Positions 1-14,000 of a stretch of 64,000 bases of DNA are shown here, piece after piece. The notes beneath the pieces were generated by a model. The model was not told where the DNA came from. It saw nothing but the letters and a program-made list of their open reading frames with translations, and searched no databases. The first letter of the stretch is position 1. Every line of letters starts with the position of its first letter. This DNA comes from Massalongia carnosa (lineage: Eukaryota), in assembly GCA_965645245.1 (NCBI GenBank), contig OZ287076.1:806001-870000 (forward strand). The letters run 5' to 3'. Position numbers and translations under genes: made by a program.

Positions 1-141
1 ATTCTTTCCATCTCTCGTCTTTTCCTATGAACGGAAGCTTTTGCGATATAGACACGTTAGCAAACGTTTGGCCTAATTTTGGATGACCGGGGGAATTCCC
101 GCTTTTACTTAAATATGTTGCGAGATTCGCTACCTGTATAG

Positions 142-282
142 AAGCATGCATACCCCGGGGGTTCGTTGGCAACAGGGATGGAAATGGTCGGAATGGTAAA
201 AAGAAGGTGGAACACTCAACCGGCACAAGAGCGCCTCTCTGGCCCTGTTGGTTTCTTCGCAAAACAAAACGGATGGGGATAA
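142..282 (+). CDS. Possible terminal exon of a gene entering from the left edge (KHAYPGGSLATGMEMVGMVKRRWNTQPAQERLSGPVGFFAKQNGWG*), product uncertain
   Basis: 47 open codons after a TAG acceptor at 139-141, ending TAA at 280-282, with protein-like composition. Upstream exons are not visible. Confidence 0.3.
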   Translation, partial: KHAYPGGSLATGMEMVGMVKRRWNTQPAQERLSGPVGFFAKQNGWG

Positions 283-1017
283 CGAGGTCGTGTGAAGATA
301 GCGCTGTGTGATTATTATTCTTCGTGTAATCAGAGCATTATGGGACGGGTGATTCGTATTCATAGAGCCCATTTTCCCCCCACAAAAACAACGAATTTTG
401 CTGTACATGTATCTAGCCTGATTAAGTCTTGACCTATATTATGCTTGTGACAGTAACTGAGGCGAAGAGGAAGGGTGGAAAAGCGGGCGGTCGGTCGGTC
501 GGTTGGTTCTGTTGATTGATTTGTTTATTATTTTACGCCGATTTCAATGGTTTGATTTCTTGCATTTCCCCCTTTCCTGATCGTGGGGGAAACTAAAGAA
601 AGAGGGAATAGGAAAGGGGGAAGGAACAGAGAGAGAAGGTGACTACATATTACATATAGATACATAACTACATGCATACATACGTACATACACACATACA
701 AAACAGACAGCTACCACTGATACAGAGTAGATCGATCGATACGTCCTCACTACTTGCTTTTTTTGGTCCTTTTTGTCCTTTTTGTCCATCCATGCATCCA
801 TCACCTCCTCCTGATGTAGATATGTAGCTTCCAACCACCCCATTCGCTCTCTCTACCCCTACCAAAAAACCAATTCCTCTTCCCCTCAACTGCACGCATC
901 CCGAAACCTTCCCCCCCCCCTTCCCAAACCATTGGGACTTCCTTAAAAGTTCAGAGCGAAACACGGACGTAAAAACCCGGGCCTTCTGGGGCTGAACGAA
1001 AGGAGGGGGTAAAAGGA

Positions 1018-2257
1018 TTACGAATCCCTCTTCTTTCTCCCATCTTTCCAATCCGACATGTGCGCCTTGATGATGCTCGCCGCCTTCTCCGCCGAATGCT
1101 GGCGCCCAATCGCCTCGACGAAATCGCCTTCGGGATCTAAGCCAGTTTCATGGGAGTTTAGCAAATCCAATCCTGCCTTTTTCCTTGCCCCCCCAAAAAT
1201 TAAAACAAATAAAAACACGAAGAGAACGTACCCATTAAGTAGAAATAGATGCTGTGATCCACCAAGTAGTCCATTCCTGGCTGGGCTCCCTCGGGTGTGC
1301 TGAAATATACCCGATAGGCTTTGCACACTTGCTTGATCTGCGCCCAGGAGCCCGTGAGACCGACGATGGCGGGGTGGAACTCGGAGAGATAAGATTTTAG
1401 GACCGGGGGGGTGTCGCGGGCTGGGTCGCAGGTTATGAAGAGGGGGAGGAGGGAGGGGCGGGAGGTTGGGGTGTTAGTGCTGGTTGAGGATGGAGATGGG
1501 GGGAGGACAGATAAGGAGGGAGGGGAGACGAGATCGATCATGGTGGACAATTTGTCGAGTTCTTCAGGGCAGATGTCGGGGCAGTGCGTGAAGCCGAAAT
1601 AGACCTGGAAGGAAGCAGGCGGGTTAGCATTGCTTTCCAGCTGAAATGGAAACTCCTCCCCTCCCACCCCGAGAAAAAAACAAACAAACAAGAAACCAAA
1701 AACACCTACCAACGAAAACCCCCCCCTCATGTCCTCGTCCCCAAACGCCCTTCCCTCATGATCCACCAGCTCGAACTTCCCGCCCACCTTCGGCCTCCCC
1801 ACCCCCTTCGCCGCCTCCGCCACGCGCTTCCGCTCCATGCGCGCCTTCTCGTACCGGAAGTAGAAGATCATCCCCGCACCTGCCGTCATGAACAGGAGCG
1901 CTGCGCCGATGGTGAATGGCTGTGTTTTGGGAAAGAGGGATTTTGGTGAGTGTTAGCTGGGTTTTGCGCTGGGTTGATTTTTGGAGGGGGGGGGGGAGGC
2001 GAAGACAGGTCTGAAATTAGGGAAAGAGAAAAGCTTACACCTGAACGAGTGCGCGAGCGGGCTTCCTCAATTGTTTTGTAGGGTCGCCGGGGGGTGGTGG
2101 TAAAAGCACGAGGGAGGGAGGGTTTGCGGGCTCGGCATATGCGTGAGGAGGGGAAAACATGGCGAAGGGAGGAAGGCGGAAGGGGGGAAACACAAAGGGG
2201 AAGGCGAATGATGGATTTGAAAAGGGAGGAGACGGGGCGGGGGTAGGGGAACGACAT
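1018..2257 (-). CDS. SCO1: Mitochondrial copper chaperone Sco1/Sco2 (cytochrome c oxidase assembly), 4 exons, ~306 aa
   Basis: Exons 2257-2039, 1919-1710, 1604-1232 and 1136-1018 splice in frame (921 nt). N-terminal Arg/Ser-rich presequence, one TM segment, VYFGFTHCPDICPEELDK (CxxxC), FITCDPARD, YLVDHSIYFYLMDPEG. Confidence 0.96.
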
Positions 2258-2755
2258 GGACGAGGGGCATAAAAGAAAAAGATTTTTGGTAACAGGAATA
2301 TCTTTTCGGTTGAGGCTAGCGTAGGGTAGGTAAATAGCTTAATTACTTCCAGATGAAGAGACATCAGCTTCAATCAATGTTTGAGCGTTTGATGACAAGG
2401 GTTTACAACAAGCAGCAGATTATCATCTCAGCGGTTAGGTCTTTTGAAAATGATTGATCGACCTCTATGTATGTACTTTTTAACGAACCATCATTTCCTC
2501 CGTAAGCTCTCAAGTGTGGCTTCCAAACCAGGAGGCTCTTCATAAAGATCCCGAAACCATGACCTAACGAAGAACAGCTCCAGAGCAGTTCTAAACGATG
2601 CTGACGCGCCGGGAAGAATATCCTTAACCCCCCCTTTTTTTGTTGCAGCAACTCACGCAGAGATATCCGGCTAAACACCATCGCTTGCCAGTATGATGCT
2701 GAAAACTCAATCTGTTCACATTCACCTCCAGCTGTCCCAAACCGTCCTTTCCAGC

Positions 2756-5548
2756 TCAACGAAGCCCTCTACTGGTTTGACTAGCCCTGCTTGGGCTGGT
2801 TCGACTCCTTTCATCCTCCTCTAGCACATCGCTAAGTCTTGTAGGATGGTGGTGGCGAGGAATCGCTTCCCAACCGAGCCCGCTCCCATAGTCACTCCCG
2901 CTGTAGTCTACAGCTATGGTCTGGCCTCCTGGGCTAGCTGCGGTGGTGTAAGTAACCTGCGGCCGTCCACCTGCTGGACTAGGACGACCCGGGGATGAAC
3001 TAGTCGGACCTGCGCCATACTCCACGCCACGAATCCCGGTGCCATAACGCTGTCGATACATGTGCTCACGCTCCTGCTGATCTTGCACGTCGTATTCGTC
3101 GCTATCTTCCGAACCAAGCCCGCCTCGGGATGGAACTGGCCTGCCTTGGGCGTCACGTCGGACTTCACCGTTCTCGTTAAGCTCATACTCCTCTTCACTC
3201 AAAGTGTCCACGGATTGCACGTATGAGCGCTCGTCGGGTTCGGTGGTACGAGGCTGGCGCGCATCTTCATGGAGAGTGGGGCCTGAATGCTGGTAAAATG
3301 ACGAGGTGGCAGGTTGGCTTGGCGGAGTCCCGGGACCATAGCGGAGATAGGTACCACCTGTTGTAGCCGAGGTTGATGTAGTGTCGCTCTGCAGAGACTT
3401 TGGTTGTTGAGCCGAAGACAAGGCAGGTTCCCCAACCGCCTGAACAGCGGTAGCAGCAGTATTGGACGTCTGCTGGCGAGGCTGAGAAGCAGTGGCAGGA
3501 AGGGAGGGGAAATTCTGCTGATAGACAGGTTGCGAGGGATTGCCGCGGCCGCTTTCGGTAAAAGGATCAGTGTCTGTTTCCGACCTCGCAGGATCGTATG
3601 CAGTAAAACCACGTTCGTCTTCCACCGGACTCTCTCCCGCCCCTTGCGTTGATTGTACGGAAGAAAGGTTGGTGGGACCTTGTGCATAAGGCCCCTCTCG
3701 AGTAGAGGGACGGTTCGAGCTTCCTTGTCGGCTGGGAGCACCCTGCAACATGGGGACAACCTGCACCCCTCCAACAAGAGTAGGCTCCCCGTTTCTCAAT
3801 GAGGTTGTGCGGTCTCGCTCCTCTTGCACCCTTCGTCCGAGCTCCTCCCATGCTCTTCGCGCTTCTTCTTTAGAAATCTGTAGTTCACGTCTCATTTCTT
3901 TGACCATTTGCTCCGCGGTGCTTTTCATTTGATACGCCGTATTCTTCTCTGTCTCTAGCCGCGCAACGTCCGCAATAGCATCCGCACGAGCTTGTCGTTC
4001 CATGCGAAGCGTGTTCTCGAGGCCGCCATGCACTTCCTGGGCACGTTCCTGCTCCGCTCTTGTCTCAAAGAACCAGCGCTGAAACTTGCGTTCGGAGGAG
4101 GCTCGGAGGCGCTGAAGCTCGACGACCGCATGGAAGAGATTGGCTCCGGCGGCGGAAAGATCCGTTACTTGGCGAGCCATTTGTTGGTTCAGAGGTTCTC
4201 GATTCATTTCGTTGCTGTTCTCTTGAAGTCGTCGAATCCAATACGACGTAAGTCCCTCCCAATGTGAGGAGAGTGTTTCCCATCTCTCAAATGCATGAGG
4301 AAATGAGGATGTATTGCGAGGTTGCGCTCCTTCTGCTGGTTCTCGGGATGCCTGAGGCCTTTGTCCTGAAGCCGAGGCGGAAGGTTCCGCCTGTGCTTGA
4401 GAATTTACGGCAGCTGAAGAAGTTTGCCTCGTTTGCGAGGGCTGCAGTTGGGTGCTAAACGGCGCGGAGGCCGCTCGAGACGATTGCCGCTGCTGCACAG
4501 GTCTGGGCTGGCCTTGGGAGACGCTACTGACCCGAGGTCGTGGCACCGCCGCCTGCGGCATCGCGCTTGTGTCTGTCGCGGTTCGGGATGTTGTTGGAAT
4601 GTATACAGATGGTTGAGCAGCTGCAGACGCATTGACTTTCACGCTGCCGCCACTTTCTCGTTCTCCCGACCTTCTGTCAGTTCCGGGAGCGATGGGGCCA
4701 TCACCACCCGAGATCCTTACGGATGCGTCTCCAGATCTCCGATTACTCGTGCGATCTTTAGTATTACCGCCGCCAGGCGCAACGATAGCAGCAGTCCTAC
4801 GGTCTGCGTTCATGGATTCCTCCTGCGCCCGTCGCTTTTCTTCCTCTTCCCTCTCCCTTTCCGCTTTTTTCTTAGCCTCCCGATCACGCCGCTGTCTCAT
4901 GATATCTGTCGGTGTCCGAACACCACCGCTAGGATACTGAGGTACTGGCCCGCCTCCCGATGCAACCCGTGAGCCACCATTCTGTACGCGCCCGTTTGTG
5001 ACCGGTGCTGGTATCGGTCCTCCACCCGCCAGGTCGGACATTGAAGCGTTTTCCTCAACTAGGTCGGGGGTAAAAAGGAATGGCGTCCTTATCGCTTCCT
5101 CGAGGGCGTAGAGGATTGCAGATGCGGTGCGACGTGAAATATGTGTACTCCTACGAGGCCAGAACGAGGGCGTTCGAGAACTCTGCCTAGTAGGGCGAGG
5201 AGTGGTTGAGTTGTCGCCTTCCTCGCTAGGTGGTTCAGTAGACTGGACAGCAGGCTCAACAGCTTGTTCGGTTGGGCTTCGGGGTGCGGTGGTGATAACA
5301 GGGGCTTGACTGGGAGCTCGCTGCTCAAACTTTGGAGTTCGCCGTAGCGTACGGACACTGCCAGACGAGCTTGAGGGTCGCGATTGCTGAAGTAGGAACG
5401 GTTGAGATAACGCCTGCCGACGCTGCTGACGCTGCGATATAACTTGTGGGCTCCTTACGTAGATATCGTATTGCTCGTCACCCAGGCGTGGAATGTATTG
5501 AGACAGGATAGGCAGTCTGGCGGAGGCTGCTGAAGAGGATGAATACAA
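2756..5548 (-). CDS. Large, mostly disordered protein with a central coiled-coil; conserved hypothetical filamentous-fungal protein. First in-frame ATG is at 5041, but the frame is open to a TTG at 5548
   Basis: 930-codon single-exon ORF. S/P/Q/G/R-rich flanks around an ordered block (SSFPHAFERWETLSSHWEGLTSYWIRRL...LFHAVVELQRLRASSERKFQRWFFE...EEARRAWEELGRR) and a C-terminal motif RHHHPTRLSDVLEEDERS. Confidence 0.85.
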   Translation of the reverse strand: MYSSSSAASARLPILSQYIPRLGDEQYDIYVRSPQVISQRQQRRQALSQPFLLQQSRPSSSSGSVRTLRRTPKFEQRAPSQAPVITTAPRSPTEQAVEPAVQSTEPPSEEGDNSTTPRPTRQSSRTPSFWPRRSTHISRRTASAILYALEEAIRTPFLFTPDLVEENASMSDLAGGGPIPAPVTNGRVQNGGSRVASGGGPVPQYPSGGVRTPTDIMRQRRDREAKKKAEREREEEEKRRAQEESMNADRRTAAIVAPGGGNTKDRTSNRRSGDASVRISGGDGPIAPGTDRRSGERESGGSVKVNASAAAQPSVYIPTTSRTATDTSAMPQAAVPRPRVSSVSQGQPRPVQQRQSSRAASAPFSTQLQPSQTRQTSSAAVNSQAQAEPSASASGQRPQASREPAEGAQPRNTSSFPHAFERWETLSSHWEGLTSYWIRRLQENSNEMNREPLNQQMARQVTDLSAAGANLFHAVVELQRLRASSERKFQRWFFETRAEQERAQEVHGGLENTLRMERQARADAIADVARLETEKNTAYQMKSTAEQMVKEMRRELQISKEEARRAWEELGRRVQEERDRTTSLRNGEPTLVGGVQVVPMLQGAPSRQGSSNRPSTREGPYAQGPTNLSSVQSTQGAGESPVEDERGFTAYDPARSETDTDPFTESGRGNPSQPVYQQNFPSLPATASQPRQQTSNTAATAVQAVGEPALSSAQQPKSLQSDTTSTSATTGGTYLRYGPGTPPSQPATSSFYQHSGPTLHEDARQPRTTEPDERSYVQSVDTLSEEEYELNENGEVRRDAQGRPVPSRGGLGSEDSDEYDVQDQQEREHMYRQRYGTGIRGVEYGAGPTSSSPGRPSPAGGRPQVTYTTAASPGGQTIAVDYSGSDYGSGLGWEAIPRHHHPTRLSDVLEEDERSRTSPSRASQTSRGLR

Positions 5549-7872
5549 CTTGAGTGGTTACCCGCCAGATGGTTTGCTACCGTCAATGTTGATACAGAAT
5601 GCGGACTCGCTAAGGAGGCGATTTCCTTGTGAGGGAATACGGTGCGTGGTCGCAGCGAGGAGCTTGCACACAATGGCTGGGAATGGGGAGCTGTGCACAC
5701 ACAATGTATGAACATTGCAGTCGAAACGGAGCGTTGAACTATAGCAATTGAAGTGGTTGGTAAAGGCACGGTGGCTGGATTGTGATGATCGAAAATCGAT
5801 GGCTGGGAACACACCGTTGCACAATCCTATCCTATGAACAAACCAGCAGGCCAAGAAGCATTACAGAGTACCACCAATACCGTCGTGACGCTGGTATGTC
5901 CTTGGTCAATTTAGCTCGTCGTGTAGAAGAGCAATTGCAAGGCCTGCTGGTTTTTACTCTATGTAGACGCTCTCCTGTTTTATCGCCCAATCCACCTTCC
6001 GGCACAACTCTTCCCTACCGATAGATGATGGAACGGTGCACAGCTCCTGTGCGTACGCTTCAGGTCTGAAGAATCCTTCCCGTCCTCGTCAATCATCATC
6101 CAGGTAACGGTGCTGCCCCAATGGCAATGGAATCACGACAGAGAGGTGGTCAGGATTGACATTATTCTCACGCGGAATTGAGAGCTTTGCGGAGATGGAA
6201 TGTTGAGTGGAGAAAGTGCAAGACTAAGATTTCGAGAGCGATTGAGACAGTGGGAGGAGTGGGAGGATGAGAGGAATGGTGTAACGAGTGTAGCGGAACG
6301 GTAAGCTGACGATGCCATCTCGACCGACAGCCAGACATGGGCCCGTCTTCGAAACGATTTGTCTGGGCCAGATCGAGAAATGCGTGGCTGGGACTTTCAA
6401 TGCGCTGGCATGGGCGGGACATTGTCACGCTAAGTCGTGTGGGGCTAAGCGGCGGAATCTCAATCGTCCTCTGAAATCCCGTGACGCAACACTTCATTTT
6501 CTTTGTGTACCTGAATACTCCGTACCTAACTACTCCGTCCCTCTACTCCGTACACAGACGACTTTACCTCCATCTCTTGGTCATTCTTTTTTCTTGTTGA
6601 CAGAAATCCTCGACAAGAATGCAGATCTGTCACGGTTATCATTCATGGATCCTGCATGTATTGAGTAACATGATGTCATTCGTGAAACGATCCTCCACAA
6701 CTGGATTAGGCTTATAATCTGCTAAAAGCATCACATCGCAGCTTCACTCACGGTTTTTGCTTTTGCGTTTTGCGTTTTCCTTTTTTTTCCCGGCTCTTTT
6801 CTCTGTCACGTCTGAATTGGAGTTGTAAAACAAGGGATGGATCACTCGGACCGTCCACGATACCTTTACAAAGTCCAACGTTTCATGTGTAACCTGTAAA
6901 TCTCTCCAGAATGCTGCTGCGAAGGCCCTCTCCGTCGCAGGTATGCATTCATTTAAGACATGGCCCCTTTTCGCAGATTTCATGTACAGAATACATAATT
7001 GAGTTGTAGAGTTCAAGGGTGCCCGCAAATAGACGCAGCTGTTGGCTGACGAGCCGATGAGATCGCTTGAACTCGGTTTTGTCTTGTTGCCTGCCTTCAC
7101 TGACGCGTGAGATCTGAAAGCATTAATACACCGCTGAACAGTACCTAGCTATGGTCACATACCGAAAGAAGATAGTCAGCCAGTAAGCTTCTGTATGTCG
7201 GTATTGCTCGCAAATCTAAGAAGTCGAGTTAAGCACAAAATTACTCTGCGTGATGCATGTCAAGTCCATATATATTTCAAGTGCAGCGCCTTTGTTTGTA
7301 CACTTGGATATTCTATGAATGCTGAGGCTACTCTACTCCATGGCTAGGGATCTACGTTGTACGTTTGATCAAAAAACAGCAGAAATTTTGCGAATGAATC
7401 CTCTTTACTTGACAGTTTTTATGCTTATTTCTATAATTCGGGTTTTTGACGCCTAGACCAAATTCTTTGCCAGCCACGAGCCACATGTTAGATTTTGAGT
7501 GCGTTGCGATGCGCGTTGGATGAGAGGCTGCATCGCTGTCTTAAACGCCCCTTGCTCTACCAGATGAGACTTCGGATTGGACCCTATTGGTAGATCTCAC
7601 AACCATCTCCACTTTTATTGGCTCTCGAACGTCTTTTCAAGACGTCTCGATAGCCTTTTTGCGGGGAAGATTGGAATGTACTTGGACGGGATGGGAGGTT
7701 TAGACATAATATTTACTTTTAAGGGAGAACCGCCATAAGTAGTCTGACTCCCGCTGACCTTACTTTGAAGGCTCGTTCTCAGAGCTCTCATTCTCCTATA
7801 TAGTCATATTTACAACAGCCGCACGTTTCAAAACCCAACAAGTAATAAACATCCTATGACGCTACAGCATCT

Positions 7873-8718
7873 ATGACGCGATATTGGACCCAGCCCAGCC
7901 AGGCCGGGCTCTCCTGTCCACCTTCTTCGCCTAGAAACGGGACGCAGACTGACCTCGGAGATGTCGAGCCTTCCTTGTCCCTTCACAACGATATGATGTA
8001 CCTTAGAGCTCAACTCGGAAACATCTCATCTTTGAGCTCTGTTGATCACTCCTCTGGATCACGATCTCCACAGGTTTTGCACGCCCCCCTTTTTGTTCCC
8101 GGTCGGTCCTCATGTCATAATTGCGAGTCAACGAACCCTTGTCCCAGGCATGCCTCGCTCAACGATGACGACGATGCAACGGTATGTGATGCGTCCAGTC
8201 CTGTATCATCCAGATATAGCCAAACGGAAACCATCCTCGAGATCCCCACCACGTATCACGATAGACTAGAGAAATGGGACCTCGAAAATCCTCGAACCTC
8301 GGGCAGATCATACCAGGAATTATGGCCTTCGTCTTCCACGTCCCTCGCGAATACCTTACCACCTACACTACCTTCGGAAAATGACATGGCTTTCCCGGCC
8401 TATCCATTTTCTCGAAAGAAGCGAGCCCGTGGTCCGCAGCCCTCAGCTGCCATGGCTCAAATCTCGCCTCCGGTCTTCAGTCCATCTATAGCTAATGCCA
8501 TAAATCGTCTTCCTATCTCAAGACCAGGAGCGGAAGTAATCCAACCATGGTCCGGGATTGCGCCTTGTTGCCCGCACCGCAAAGTTCCTACACCCAATAA
8601 AGAAATGGAAATATCCAGGTTCGATGCAGATAGTGATGACGGGGAGCAAAGAGCATTTTTAAGGTTCCGTCGTAGAGTGTCAAATGGTTTCCAACACCTT
8701 TTGTGTCGGAGTGGATAA
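7873..8718 (+). CDS. Hypothetical protein, 281 aa, S/P-rich, with a small CxxC-x4-CxxH motif
   Basis: Single ATG-initiated ORF preceded by TATA-like tatata near 7797. No recognisable family. Confidence 0.55.
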   Translation: MTRYWTQPSQAGLSCPPSSPRNGTQTDLGDVEPSLSLHNDMMYLRAQLGNISSLSSVDHSSGSRSPQVLHAPLFVPGRSSCHNCESTNPCPRHASLNDDDDATVCDASSPVSSRYSQTETILEIPTTYHDRLEKWDLENPRTSGRSYQELWPSSSTSLANTLPPTLPSENDMAFPAYPFSRKKRARGPQPSAAMAQISPPVFSPSIANAINRLPISRPGAEVIQPWSGIAPCCPHRKVPTPNKEMEISRFDADSDDGEQRAFLRFRRRVSNGFQHLLCRSG

Positions 8719-9179
8719 TGGAAAGCTCCGTAGAAGGGACTTGGCCATATTGCACGCAATACAAAATTTCTGACGATCAAAAATAATTTCGGATTTTATC
8801 AACGGTTGGATATGAATTTATGACTATACCGATGTTTCGGTGGGCTGCCCGAGCATCGTATTCGGAGAGTGTTGCTCTGTTGTTCTGATTGTTTTAGTAC
8901 GAGTTTCTTCAACCCTGGTTTATGGTTGCTGTAGGCACGTATCAAGCTGGAGCTTGGCCCACTGCGGGAGCTCTGCGTCTCTGCGACCGCGAGTTGTTCA
9001 AACGTCAGCCTTGGGATCGTGCTTCACTCGGTGCCCGTACGTCGGCTTTGTATTTCACCTGTTCGTGGCATGTTAAGCGGAGAGCTCCATGTGCATTCGG
9101 GGTCCAATGGGCGCTTCCCCTGGTCCAGATTTGAAATCTCTTGAATTCGTCCCTGTGTTAGAGCAGTCCGAGTTCGGGC

Positions 9180-9908
9180 CTAGACCTCTTCGCTCCTAAC
9201 CCGTCCATTTTCCCATTCCTCCCCCTCAAAATTTCCCCCGTGAACACCCCACCGATTCAGCTCTTCCCCAACCCTCCCGGACCATAGTTCCAGCAGCGGA
9301 TGCTTATCCGCTACTTCCACAAACGTCAAATCCCCTCTGTATTTGCCCTCAGGACCGTCCTCGAGCCCCTCGACCGCAAACCTCCATGTCCCATCCTCCG
9401 CCCACCATTCCTTCCCAAACACATTCTCCATCGCCAATTCACGCCTCGCACTCACCAGCAATTCTTCCAATCTCGTCCTCTCTATCGTCCAGCTCCGACT
9501 CTGCATCTCCTCATCTTCCTCCTCCTCCCCATTCCCATCCCCATCCCTATCCTTATCCCTATCCCCATTCCTATCCCCACCTCCAACAATCACTGGCTTC
9601 CCTCTAAGCGCAGCACACAGCCCCTCCAGTGCGCCAAGCAAATACCCGACCCGCAACCCCAGCACGGCGCCAAGCGCGTACCCCTCATCGAACCCTGGCT
9701 GCAGGGACTCAGTCTTAGAGGCGGATATGCCGGTGCGGTAGCCAGCCGTCGAGTGCGTGGCGCGCAGGCGTGGGATATCAGACGGGTGCGGTTGTTGTTT
9801 CGTGGGGGTGGTGGGCGGGGAGTCGGGGAAGATATCGGAGAGGGGGTGCAGGCGGGGAGGGGGCGATGTGCTGGGCTGCGGGGCAGGGAGGGGGGGATGA
9901 GTGGACAT
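9180..9908 (-). CDS. YAE1: Yae1 (cytosolic Fe-S assembly adaptor of the Yae1-Lto1 complex)
   Basis: ATG at 9908 (MSTHPPLP). Deca-GX3 motif region RLRATHSTAGYRTGISASKTESLQPGFDEGYALGAVLGLRVGYLLGALEGL and a typical fungal C-terminus (VFGKEWWAEDGTWRFAV...HPLLELWS). Confidence 0.9.
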   Translation of the reverse strand: MSTHPPLPAPQPSTSPPPRLHPLSDIFPDSPPTTPTKQQPHPSDIPRLRATHSTAGYRTGISASKTESLQPGFDEGYALGAVLGLRVGYLLGALEGLCAALRGKPVIVGGGDRNGDRDKDRDGDGNGEEEEDEEMQSRSWTIERTRLEELLVSARRELAMENVFGKEWWAEDGTWRFAVEGLEDGPEGKYRGDLTFVEVADKHPLLELWSGRVGEELNRWGVHGGNFEGEEWENGRVRSEEV

Positions 9909-11083
9909 TTGGAATCTGGAATGACTTTGGAATGTGGGGTTTGGAGGTGAGTTGGAGATGGTTGGATGTTGGTTGATTGGTTGGTTGGTTGATTGGTGGT
10001 AGGGTACAGAGTACAGAGTATACAAAGGGGGGTTTTGGGTTTCGAATGGTTTTTGGGGAGCGGGGTTTGAAAAGAGCGGGTTATGGTAGTGATCGGATTA
10101 GGTTAGAACAAAAACCTATAACACGGACGAGCCGACTGAAAGGTACCTAGTACTGTGTACATTCCGGCACGACCGGTAAACGGCGAGTTAGATTCTTGAC
10201 TTTCATGTTAGCTCTATGCGAGGACACTAGAGAAATCACATCCCTCATACCTACTTCGTACTTCGCCATGACATCTCACCCGGTTCCTTTCAAATTACCA
10301 TCCCACGGGTAATGCAGATCTCATAACATGATTTGTTCGGCGCAATGCAACGCAGGCGGCGCTCTTAATTGTCCATCTTATTCGATGTTCAGCATGACTC
10401 GAGTATTCCTTTCTTCTTCTGCCCCTCATCTCCTTCACCACTCAAGGCGTTGTACGTAAAGGTGCAACGCATTTTGCAAAGCAAGACATGGACCTCGCTG
10501 CATACTCTGACCTTGCTCGCTTCTTGTTCTGTGGCTATTTGTGTCTGGGTTCTTCTCCTCATCAAGCTTCACATGCAAACCCCGCGCTCTTTCTTCAATC
10601 AAATAGAAGCGGGAGCAACAAAAAGTCAATTATTTAAGCAAGACGCATATATTCAAGAAATTTGCTGTTGGCCCCGCTTTCTCTCGTTGGGTTCGCATCG
10701 TCATGCTTTTCGCGCCCAAGGATTGTGATAGCATTGCTATTGGGTAGGGTTTTTTAACGGCTTTTCCTTTCAGCATATGTCTTATTGATGTGGTTTCACG
10801 ACATGGGGCTTATGGCGATTTTGATCATACGGCATTCGAAATGCAGGATGCATTGAATCATCACACCACAATGCCTATCGGCTCAAGGTGCTCTGTAAAC
10901 ATTTTTTCTATAAGTTGACCCATCTTGCCTTTCCTTAGAAGAAATCCGAGAACCCTACATTCCAACTTTGATCTCAGGTCTTGTTGATCCCGTCATTGCC
11001 AAACCTCCCCACCCGAGGTTCCTCAAAGCTATTCGCCTTGTGTAGCCTAACCTGATTTATCAGGATCAACAAGCTTAAAAACC

Positions 11084-14000
11084 ATGGGGGAAAACTCCAC
11101 TGACAAGCCCAAGTGCAACATTTACACCACCAAAGAATCATCTGAGGATGTCTCACATCAGATAATCAGCTCTTTGTTCCTCGGCCCTCAGGCTGAGAAT
11201 ATGGATTATTTCAAGAAGAATGTCACTGCTATTCTTGACGCCCAAGCAGCGTCAAGGAAGAGCTACTGCCCTGGAGATGGAGTAGGTACTCTTGATTCTG
11301 ACGTTTAGTTTATATTACCCCTCACCATTGCTTTAATGGGTGCTAGCCTTCTCAAATCCCTAAACAAGGCTGATGGTTATGATAAATTATATAGGATTTT
11401 ATAAGTGTTGCGGTCAAGGAGTCTCCGGCATTTACAGAAAATGCCGATAGGATTAGTGCGGCAGTTCAGAAAGCTGCTGAACTCCTCGGGAAGCATTCAG
11501 TACCTTTTTGGTCTCCTAGATACGCGGCACATATGTGTATGGATATGAGCATGCCCTCGCTTCTCGGCTATTTCATGACCATGCTCTACAATCCCAACAA
11601 CGTATCAATCGAGGCGAGTCCGTTGACCACCGTGGCAGAGATTAGGGCTGGAGAGCAACTCTGTGAGCTATTTGGATTCAATATCAAACGAAATGATCCG
11701 AAGGCTGTCGTTGCTTGGGGCCATATTACCTGTGGTGGTACTGTCGCCAACCTGGAGTCTATCTGGTTAGTTTCATCGGTTACGATACCTAGTTGGGCTG
11801 TTAACCCTCTCATCCAATGACTATGAATATGCAGAACATTAATGTGTGAAGCTAGAAATACAGTTGAGCATGGCTAACGCAAGGCTTAGGTCAGGTGTGA
11901 TTACACCCTATATTAGGCTTTACTTATGATTCGGATCTAACTCTTTCTCTCAGCACGTAATCTAAAATTTTACCCCCTTTCCCTGCGAAACGCAACTAAG
12001 GATTACGCCCCGCTATCGTTTATTGCTGGTACCTTTGCAGTCGAAACGTGCATTGGGGAGCAGAAACTGTTCAAAAATCTATCTCTTTGGGAAATACTTA
12101 ATCTCAAGGTTCCCACCATTCTCGAGATCCCCCAAAGGCTGTACGATGAATACGGTATCTCATCAACTTTCTTGCAAAACGTAATGGAGAAGTATACTAT
12201 CCAGTCGACGGGGAAAGGAATCCTCGAGCAGCAGTATGGCATAGAAAACCCCATTCAGCTCATGGTAGCAGGAACTAGGCATTATTCTTGGCCAAAAGGA
12301 GGCGGTTAGTATCTATGCTGTCTGGCTGTTACTGAGAAATCTACTGATTATCTTTTCCTCCCTCTGTAGCCATTACCGGCATCGGATCCGACAACGTGAT
12401 TGGGGTTGAGGTAGACGATGGTGCTCGTATCGACATTAAGGACTTGGAGCGTCGTCTTGATGCCAGTTTGAACGAGAAGCGGGCGGTCTATGCCGTAGTT
12501 GCTATCATTGGATCTACCGAAGAAGGAGCTGTGGACCCTCTTGCGAAGATTGTTGCTCTTCGAAAAAAATACCAAGCTAAGGGGCTTTCTTTTATAATCC
12601 ATGCCGATGCTGCTTGGGGCGGCTACTTTGCCTCTATGCTACCTAGAGATTTCCAACCAGGCGTTCCCTTTAATGCGCCACCAGCTCAGACAGGAGATGG
12701 AGAAGGCTTCGTGCCTGACGCTACTCTTCGAGCCGAGACCCAGGAGGATATTTTTGCGATTCGATTTGCTGATTCGGTGACGGTTGATCCTCACAAGGCT
12801 GGATATATTCCTTATCCCGCTGGCGGGCTGTGCTATCGCGATGAGCGACAAAGGTACCTCGTCACGTGGACTAGCCCATATATCTCTCGTGGGGATACAA
12901 CCACTAGCATTGGTGTCTTTGGCGTTGAAGGGAGGTCAGTAGCCCCAAACCACGTGGCAGCTTCTCTTGGAGAGTACAATCGACTAAATTATGACTGACA
13001 TTCTACTTATTCCATAGCAAGCCTGGCGCCTCCGCTATGTCTACGTGGCTCTCTAACGTCTGCATTGGAATGGGTCCTGAGGGCTACGGAGCTTTACTAG
13101 GAGAAGTCTCATTTACCTGCAGTAGAGTAAGTCAAATGCGGCAGGAAATTTATTTTGCAAAGCAACGCTGACCTTTCGGGTCATCTAGCTTTCGGCTCAT
13201 TGGGCGGCCATGTCTACGAAGGACACCAGTTTCATAGTGGTTCCTTTCAACTTGCTTCCCTCTGAAAAAGTCAAAGGCTCAACCCCGCAGAAGGTGGAAG
13301 AGGAACGGCAGAAAATTCGAGATCATATCCTCGATAAGTCCAACAAAGAATTGGTTGAAGCAGATGCGCAGAAACCCGATAATGACAAAGCCATGGTTCT
13401 TCTTCGCGCAATTGGATCTGACCTCAACATTAACGCATTTGCGCTCAATTTCCGGTACTCGAATGGGACTATGAACCGCGATGTCGAAGAGGCAAATTAC
13501 CTCAACAGACGTGTTGTTGAGAGGCTTTCGGTGGACTCGCCCCACGATGACCCAACCTCCATGGAGTTTTTCCTCACCTCGACCGAGTTTACGCAAAGCC
13601 TATATGGCAAATGTGCCGATACTTTCAAACGGCGTCTCGAGCTTGAGGTGGATCAAACGGATTTGTTTGTTCTTCGCAATGTGATCATGTCGCCATTCCC
13701 GACTGAGGGAAATTTCATTGGCAAAATGGTTGATGTTTTCCGAAAGGTTGTTGAGGAGGAGGTTGAAGTACGTATATAGCGGAGAGTGGACGACTCCCCC
13801 GATATGTGTGCTAAACCACTTATCCGCAGGTCTGTCGCAAGCGCAACGAGACCCGAGCGAGTCATCATAGTTTCATCCTTCAAGGCACCGACCAGATCTA
13901 CCTTGTCCACCGGTCCATGTTCCATTTGGCCTCTCTCCGCCGTCAACTGATTGTCTCCGCGAAACTCGATTCCGAAGCATTGAAGAAATATATTGAGGCG

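Follow-up and report, generated by a model that had tools for sequence, protein, structure and literature searches.

The minus-strand gene at positions 2756-5548 of a 64,000-nucleotide stretch of Massalongia carnosa DNA (contig OZ287076.1, forward-strand positions 806,001 to 870,000; hereafter the window, whose own numbering is used throughout) very likely begins its full-length protein at a non-AUG codon. The proposed main start is a TTG (UUG in the transcript) at 5546..5548, from which an N-terminal extension leads to the first in-frame ATG. Comparison with relatives of the gene indicates that this extension is coding, that the TTG and a second near-cognate codon downstream of it are conserved, and that ATG triplets are depleted between these codons and an invariant ATG. 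We favour an explanation in which ribosomes initiate at non-AUG codons and reach the first AUG by leaky scanning, and assign this reading as a whole a probability of approximately 0.8. That two isoforms are made, a long one started at a NUG codon (UUG, CUG or GUG) and a short one started at AUG, is a probable component of the reading, held with somewhat less assurance than the non-AUG start itself. The gene and its start-region features all lie on the minus strand.

The extended reading frame and its conservation

The frame of the gene is open from stop to stop over 2756-5557, a span of 933 codons, and is closed on its 5′ side by an in-frame TAA at 5558..5560, three codons before the proposed TTG start. 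Between the TTG (5548-5546) and the first in-frame ATG (5041-5039) there are exactly 169 codons, which is the number of open codons given in a preliminary description of this DNA made from the letters alone. That description had also reported no minus-strand ATG in any frame from 5042 to 5712, and a scripted scan of all three frames bears this out, with solely the ATGs at 5861, 5715, 5041 and 4980 present in the interval 4900-5900. From 5715 to 5041 this leaves a gap of 674 nt, and no other ATG-free gap in the window, whichever the strand, is as long, the runners-up being 554, 531, 499, 498, 490 and 474 nt. The expectation of about 10 ATGs at uniform composition that accompanied the earlier claim was too high, as the composition of the segment itself predicts 7.2 (mononucleotide) or 5.5 (first-order Markov). 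Because approximately 190 such segments fit on the two strands, the gap in the window is by itself only weakly significant, and it rises above chance because it recurs in relatives. Contigs from four DNA runs belonging to two studies match the stretch with zero listed differences, with the second study contributing contig pieces over 5056-5298 and 5408-5634. The absence of ATG and the presence of the stop are therefore not assembly errors.

In the direction of transcription, the region comprises an ATG-free leader before the TTG (5549..5712), in which coding conservation is not seen, followed by the 169-codon extension (5042..5548), which is evidently coding, mostly disordered in prediction, and ATG-free in all three frames. 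The first AUG (5039..5041) is the candidate start of the short isoform and corresponds to Met173 of the stop-to-stop frame, or Met170 when counted from the TTG. The remaining coding sequence (CDS; 2756..5038) includes a conserved central coiled-coil region and the stop codon.

Relatives were gathered by a scan of metagenome contigs that produced 379 pattern matches, 198 of which encode a relative, and the best 80 of these 198 were taken as loci. Together with the window they provide 60 distinct sequences of the region, the remaining loci being duplicates or lacking the N-terminal part, and clustering at 85% amino-acid identity of the extension yields 40 lineages. The classes of the loci were assigned by their best BLAST match to named proteins, with identities of 87% for Glonium, 60-74% for Zopfia, 68-81% for Penicillium and 52-89% for lichen-forming fungi, and several loci reach just 40-48% identity to any named protein. 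DNA of Sordariomycetes and Leotiomycetes lies outside the locus set.

At the protein level, residues 1-230 of the stop-to-stop translation match 332 proteins with E ≤ 0.001 among 8000 candidates scored, and the named matches come from Lecanoromycetes, Eurotiomycetes, Dothideomycetes, Geoglossomycetes and others. An alignment of 24 proteins contains 17 invariant columns upstream of or at Met173, several short motifs held in common, and a block of approximately 45 residues that spans Met173, and the first residues of the extension are poorly conserved. The window extension is 53-57% identical to that of the nearest loci and retains the frame, all of the family motifs and both NUG codons, and the identity of the whole protein to database relatives is as high as 78-79%. 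Estimates of the nonsynonymous substitution rate relative to the synonymous rate (dN/dS, by the method of Nei and Gojobori) for moderately diverged locus pairs range from 0.12 to 0.42 in the extension (14 of 15 pairs estimable) and from 0.055 to 0.166 in the downstream CDS (10 of 15 estimable, the rest being saturated). Judged by these comparisons, the 169-codon extension is a coding sequence under purifying selection. All 15 pairs have proportionally fewer synonymous differences in the extension than in the downstream CDS (proportions of, for example, 0.32 versus 0.43 and 0.43 versus 0.62), which hints at an extra constraint on synonymous sites, such as the avoidance of ATG or the presence of RNA-level features.

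An in-frame stop upstream of the extension is present in 57 of the 60 distinct sequences, and in the other three the end of the locus is reached first. Between this stop (or the locus end) and the conserved Met there is no in-frame ATG in any of the 60 sequences, and the conserved Met is encoded by ATG in every one of them. Three loci carry a canonical GT..AG intron within the extension. In the coordinates of each locus, these introns are located at 3917-3964 in L049 (48 nt, beginning GTACAT), 3912-3964 in L055 (53 nt, beginning GTAACG) and 3186-3237 in L072 (52 nt, beginning GTAATG). All three end in TAG and carry a branch-point-like TACTAAC or AGTAAC. The upstream part of these extensions is in frame solely after intron removal, and the spliced translations are colinear with those of intronless relatives, with 95-99 of 143 residues identical to locus L064. 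Once spliced, the three extensions are free of ATG in all frames up to the conserved ATG. The intron is a gain in one clade, whose nearest named relative is Zopfia, and the GTAATG at the start of the L072 intron is a case of an ATG tolerated where it is spliced out. When close pairs of loci are aligned, the leader upstream of the start column has many gaps whose lengths are not multiples of three, although the contrast between upstream and downstream gaps is soft and constitutes a minor point.

A Pfam search of the protein gave nothing above the gathering cut-off, with two sub-threshold matches at E values of 0.14 and 0.33, and the look-alikes retrieved from the ESM Atlas are exclusively clusters named ‘hypothetical protein’. 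The coiled coil probably accounts for source names such as ‘SMC domain-containing’ and ‘reticulocyte-binding protein’. The 229 residues that begin at the TTG were modelled with AlphaFold2 from 37 aligned sequences, and the model is mostly disordered, with a mean predicted local distance difference test score (pLDDT) of 58. The segment just before the ATG, which the preliminary description had read as an ordered helix, is also a confident helix in this prediction. This conserved helix, RRTASAILYALEEAIR (5087..5134, residues 139-154 from the TTG), contains invariant residues, and the mean pLDDT of 10-residue blocks is 80-93 over residues 131-160. Order is also predicted at residues 163-166, as a short helix, and at residues 213-228, where the coiled coil begins. 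According to this model, a short isoform would lack the helix at residues 139-154 and all of the motifs upstream of it.

Near-cognate codons and the AUG desert

The start column was defined on a MAFFT alignment of stop-to-Met translations, and conservation in this alignment begins at the column of the window TTG. A residue is present in this first column in 37 of the 40 lineage representatives, which carry TTG (28), CTG (two), GTG (one), CTC (five) or TCG (one). By comparison, TTG makes up 14.4% of the 1488 other leucine codons of the same genes. The intron-bearing loci L049, L055 and L072, which represent two further lineages, have GTG at this position. The nucleotides preceding the column are constrained as well, with a purine at -3 in 36 of 37 representatives and C at -4 in 32 of 37, and the window itself (CTC AAG TTG TAT) has A at -3 and C at -4. 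The residues encoded at -1 and -2 of the column vary, and the sequence information is near zero upstream of -5. Because the context is kept while the encoded residues are variable and the information ends at -5, the constraint acts on nucleotides. From the alignment, it follows the pattern of a fungal start context, for which the consensus is C-A-M-M before ATG.

A second conserved column is located 14 codons past the TTG and is occupied in the window by CTG at 5504..5506, in the context ATC CTG TCT with A at -3. Near-cognate codons are found there in 31 of the 38 representatives that have a residue in this column (CTG 16, GTG nine, TTG five and ACG one). All 21 leucine codons in the column are CTG or TTG, and all nine valine codons are GTG. 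Strong near-cognate codons reach a share of 60% or more in the first and second NUG columns and in no other column of the extension, and at least one of the two holds such a codon in 40 of 40 lineages. In contrast, ATG is present in either column in 0 of 40. Two candidate starts had been named in the preliminary description. The TTG at 5548 is the conserved codon, whereas the CTG in AGA-CTG-CCT (5515-5513) falls in a column that is not well conserved and stays below the 60% level, and the CTG three codons beyond it, at 5506-5504, is preferred as the conserved second site.

Two loci, L022 and L024, have CTT in the first column with an in-frame stop behind it, and the second NUG (CTG) lies four codons after this stop. 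Only the second NUG can therefore serve in these loci, and their 5′ end, at about 170 nt upstream of the conserved region (3588-3887 in L022), appears to be remodelled and to use the second site only. An upstream in-frame open reading frame (ORF) in this lineage begins with ATG and has its TAG four codons ahead of the second NUG. With regard to the residue that follows each candidate start, there is a serine codon after the second NUG column (TCT, 5503-5501) and after the first ATG of the window (TCC, 5038-5036), and in the relatives T and C predominate at positions +4 and +5 of the first NUG column, where the window has TAT (Tyr, 5545-5543). It is possible that the predicted proteins have a common Met-Ser N-terminus, which is typical of Met removal and N-acetylation.

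Between the first NUG column and the conserved ATG, the 37 representatives contain 18.9 kb of extension in which ATG occurs 0 times in frame 0, 21 times in frame +1 and 0 times in frame +2. The corresponding counts for 73.2 kb of downstream CDS are 329, 610 and 41, and at these densities the extension should contain approximately 85, 157 and 11 ATGs. Relative to a first-order Markov expectation, the ratio of observed to expected ATGs is 0.20 in the extension versus 1.05 in the downstream CDS. In 20 of the 37 representatives there is no ATG whatever from the first NUG to the conserved ATG. The 21 residual out-of-frame ATGs are lineage-specific and open ORFs of 4-76 codons, 16 of which finish before the conserved ATG and five of which finish 16 nt past it. 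The Penicillium-like loci L036, L041, L043 and L045 have a conserved out-of-frame ATG located 8 nt upstream of the conserved ATG. The 7-codon ORF that it opens runs across the conserved ATG to a point 16 nt beyond, and could modulate use of the first in-frame AUG.

The nearest ATG upstream of the conserved ATG is at a median distance of 632 nt, compared to a median of 43 nt (range 9-102) for the next ATG downstream, and the desert therefore ends exactly at the conserved ATG. In the relatives, 79-684 nt of leader ahead of the first NUG likewise lack ATG. Conserved upstream ORFs (uORFs) that begin with AUG and gate the main start, as in systems of the GCN4/cpc-1 type, were not found in the 674 ATG-free nucleotides before the first AUG of the window or in these leader stretches of the relatives. 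Because an in-frame Met and a change from NUG to AUG are both absent across the 40 lineages, we infer that inefficient upstream initiation and use of the first AUG are themselves maintained. The distribution of ATGs fits leaky scanning to a short isoform started at AUG. The preliminary description had suggested looking among relatives for a conserved frame, dN/dS below 1, a conserved near-cognate codon and conserved AUG depletion. All of these features are found at the values given above, and the comparative evidence supports the non-AUG N-terminal extension that it put forward.

Start-site use and competing explanations

Under the favoured explanation, scanning ribosomes would traverse the AUG-free leader and reach the UUG at 5548-5546 in its favourable context, where a fraction of them would initiate with initiator Met-tRNA. 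Fourteen codons on, the CUG at 5506-5504 would offer another opportunity. Ribosomes that initiate at neither NUG codon would then scan approximately 500 nt that are free of AUG in all frames before they reach the in-frame, invariant AUG at 5041. Initiation there would give a short isoform without the 169-residue disordered region, its motifs and its helix. Initiation at the NUG codons, the existence and ratio of the two isoforms, and any regulation of them are the portions of this explanation that we infer.

Several points weigh against this reading. UUG is usually a weak start codon, and six of the 37 representatives have a codon in the first column that is not near-cognate (the CTC and TCG cases noted above), each of these six having TTG, CTG or ACG within one to three codons or a near-cognate codon in the second column. 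One or two out-of-frame ATGs are present inside the extension in 17 of the 37 representatives. The conserved AUG has a weak context, position -3 being a pyrimidine in 35 of 37 and position +4 a T in 33 of 37, unlike that of a strongly selected main start. Furthermore, a strongly conserved motif contains Met173, and structural demands by themselves could account for the invariance of this residue. A downstream hairpin of the kind that might raise non-AUG initiation is not evident among the 37 representatives, for which minimum free energy (MFE) z-scores of the interval +7 to +66 have a mean of -0.45, with three of 37 below -2. The means for the upstream region and for an internal control are -0.52 and +0.33, respectively. 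In principle, the transcript start could lie downstream of the TTG. The lineage counts are not phylogenetically independent, since the loci share descent. Finally, position +4 of the first column is mostly T and not the preferred G, and Ivanov et al. (PMC5487733) emphasise context positions -3 and +4.

Some of these same features would be accommodated if the gene produced a single isoform from its NUG start(s) only, with Met173 as an internal structural Met and the desert serving to avoid wasteful out-of-frame initiation. This possibility, which we consider unlikely, is favoured by the highly conserved block that spans Met173, by the weak context of its AUG (a pyrimidine at -3), and by the observation that the helix upstream of Met173 is the best ordered element, such that a protein started at Met173 loses a conserved part. 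However, a single isoform does not readily explain why in-frame ATGs are entirely missing when approximately 85 are expected, as an early in-frame ATG would then be harmless or even helpful. Likewise, the one-step change from TTG, CTG or GTG to ATG has occurred in none of the 40 lineages in either column, and the desert ends precisely at Met173 with the next ATG typically only 43 nt away. Under the established scanning model, ribosomes that leak past weak NUG codons would in any event initiate at the first AUG. The proposal that the protein begins at the ATG at 5041 dispenses with the extension altogether, leaving the upstream region as an untranslated leader or a decaying relic and the ATG gap as the product of chance or of selection against upstream AUGs in a 5′ untranslated region (UTR). 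The weak significance of the window gap by itself and the known depletion of AUG in 5′ UTRs are compatible with this proposal, but we judge it to be highly improbable given that the window extension retains the frame, the family motifs and both NUG codons, that both it and the whole protein remain similar to their relatives at the identities given above, and that the extension is under purifying selection in those relatives.

Splicing could instead join the extension in frame to a short upstream exon that supplies a canonical AUG. Gene models of this kind are common in the annotation of named genomes, and the window has upstream ATGs at 5715 and 5861 that might serve. We nevertheless regard this arrangement as improbable, because in-frame stops are often found 3-12 codons upstream, with little room for an acceptor between them and the NUG codon. 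Specifically, the acceptor must follow the last in-frame stop, which lies three codons before the TTG in the window and, for 22 of the 37 representatives, no more than 12 codons before the first NUG column. In the interval between this stop and the first NUG codon, 11 of the 22 have no AG and 19 have no YAG. An acceptor located past the TTG would leave the nucleotide conservation of the TTG and its context unexplained. Also, the distance to the nearest upstream ATG varies from 79 to 684 nt, and gene models from the same species contradict one another.

Database models point in the same direction. The N-termini of 120 homologues range from 0 to 128 residues upstream of the start column or fall far to its downstream side. 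Models from Aspergillus fumigatus have lengths of 771, 761, 762, 758 and 579 amino acids, those from Histoplasma have lengths of 1004, 736, 1122, 1029 and 690, and those from Penicillium expansum have lengths of 834, 895 and 805. Four different N-termini are represented among the A. fumigatus models, one of which is the conserved internal Met. Because public models begin at many apparently arbitrary ATGs or at an internal Met, even within a species, the full-length protein of this family is probably mis-annotated in many genomes. Eleven entries start with M exactly at the first column, including ten Logan or ENA proteins and one Histoplasma Logan protein. The callers behind these entries may accept TTG or GTG starts, and prokaryote-style callers appear to have found the likely start in them.

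Surrounding features and relation to known systems

The nearest upstream ATG in the window (5715) opens an ORF of 86 codons in another frame (5455..5715) that overlaps both NUG candidates. This ORF would matter only if transcripts begin upstream of 5715, in which case a long uORF with an inhibitory effect would result. Relatives do not keep its position, and their nearest upstream ATG is 79-684 nt away. The next long open frame upstream of the gene is located at 7849-8718 on the plus strand. The start region and this frame, which lies on the opposite strand, may therefore have a divergent promoter region in the approximately 2.2 kb that separates them. An Rfam scan of window positions 1-12000 identified no family.

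To our knowledge, there are few well-supported conserved non-AUG starts in fungi, and cpc-1 is the main example in filamentous fungi. A search of the literature found no paper on the family described here, its locus tags or its start codon. The yeast genes GRS1 (UUG) and ALA1 (ACG) produce extended isoforms started at non-AUG codons, and a wider set of such isoforms was reportedly assembled by Monteuuis and colleagues in 2019. As proposed for the gene in the window, the longer isoform of each yeast gene starts at an upstream in-frame near-cognate codon, and the shorter results from leaky scanning to the first AUG. The yeast extensions differ in being short mitochondrial presequences that confer dual localisation, whereas the extension in the window has 169 conserved, mostly disordered residues together with a predicted helix. 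Mammalian non-AUG starts include those of EIF4G2/DAP5, which uses GUG only, and MYC, which uses CUG plus AUG. These share with the present family a conserved near-cognate start in a good context, and the MYC type additionally shares the proposed production of two isoforms by leaky scanning. However, they belong to another kingdom and involve unrelated proteins, and the tandem NUG codons 14 codons apart and the approximately 500-nt AUG desert in all frames are peculiar to the family described here.

The cpc-1 gene of Neurospora crassa encodes a bZIP activator whose N-terminal extension is made from several conserved near-cognate codons and has a dN/dS of 0.348 (Ivanov et al. 2017, mBio, PMC5487733). 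Both systems have a Pezizomycotina-wide, in-frame extension upstream of the annotated AUG that is under purifying selection. In both, two or more near-cognate codons are conserved in good context, with a codon identity that shifts by lineage among NUG-type codons. The two systems differ in that the cpc-1 leader contains two regulatory AUG uORFs that are overlapped and bypassed by its extension, whereas the leader and extension in the window are AUG-free and accompanied by no conserved uORF. The main codon is UUG in the present family and ACG, AUU or CUG in cpc-1. In addition, CPC-1 is a known activator whose start sites have been examined in vitro and in vivo, whereas the present protein family is uncharacterised.

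The signature observed in this family is unusually clean. Across lineages matching at least three classes a UUG is retained, a further NUG lies 14 codons downstream as a backup, and a desert of approximately 500 nt without AUG ends at an invariant AUG. A practical consequence is that database models of the family probably begin at the wrong position in many genomes. More tentatively, the tandem weak NUG codons, never replaced by AUG, might be kept so that the ratio of long to short isoforms reads out how stringently start codons are selected, although we consider this idea doubtful. Inputs to such a readout would include the balance between eIF1 and eIF5, phosphorylation of eIF2, and stress. 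If true, the two isoforms would have different or opposing activities, and the gene would represent a conserved translational switch that operates across several classes of Pezizomycotina in an unstudied protein.

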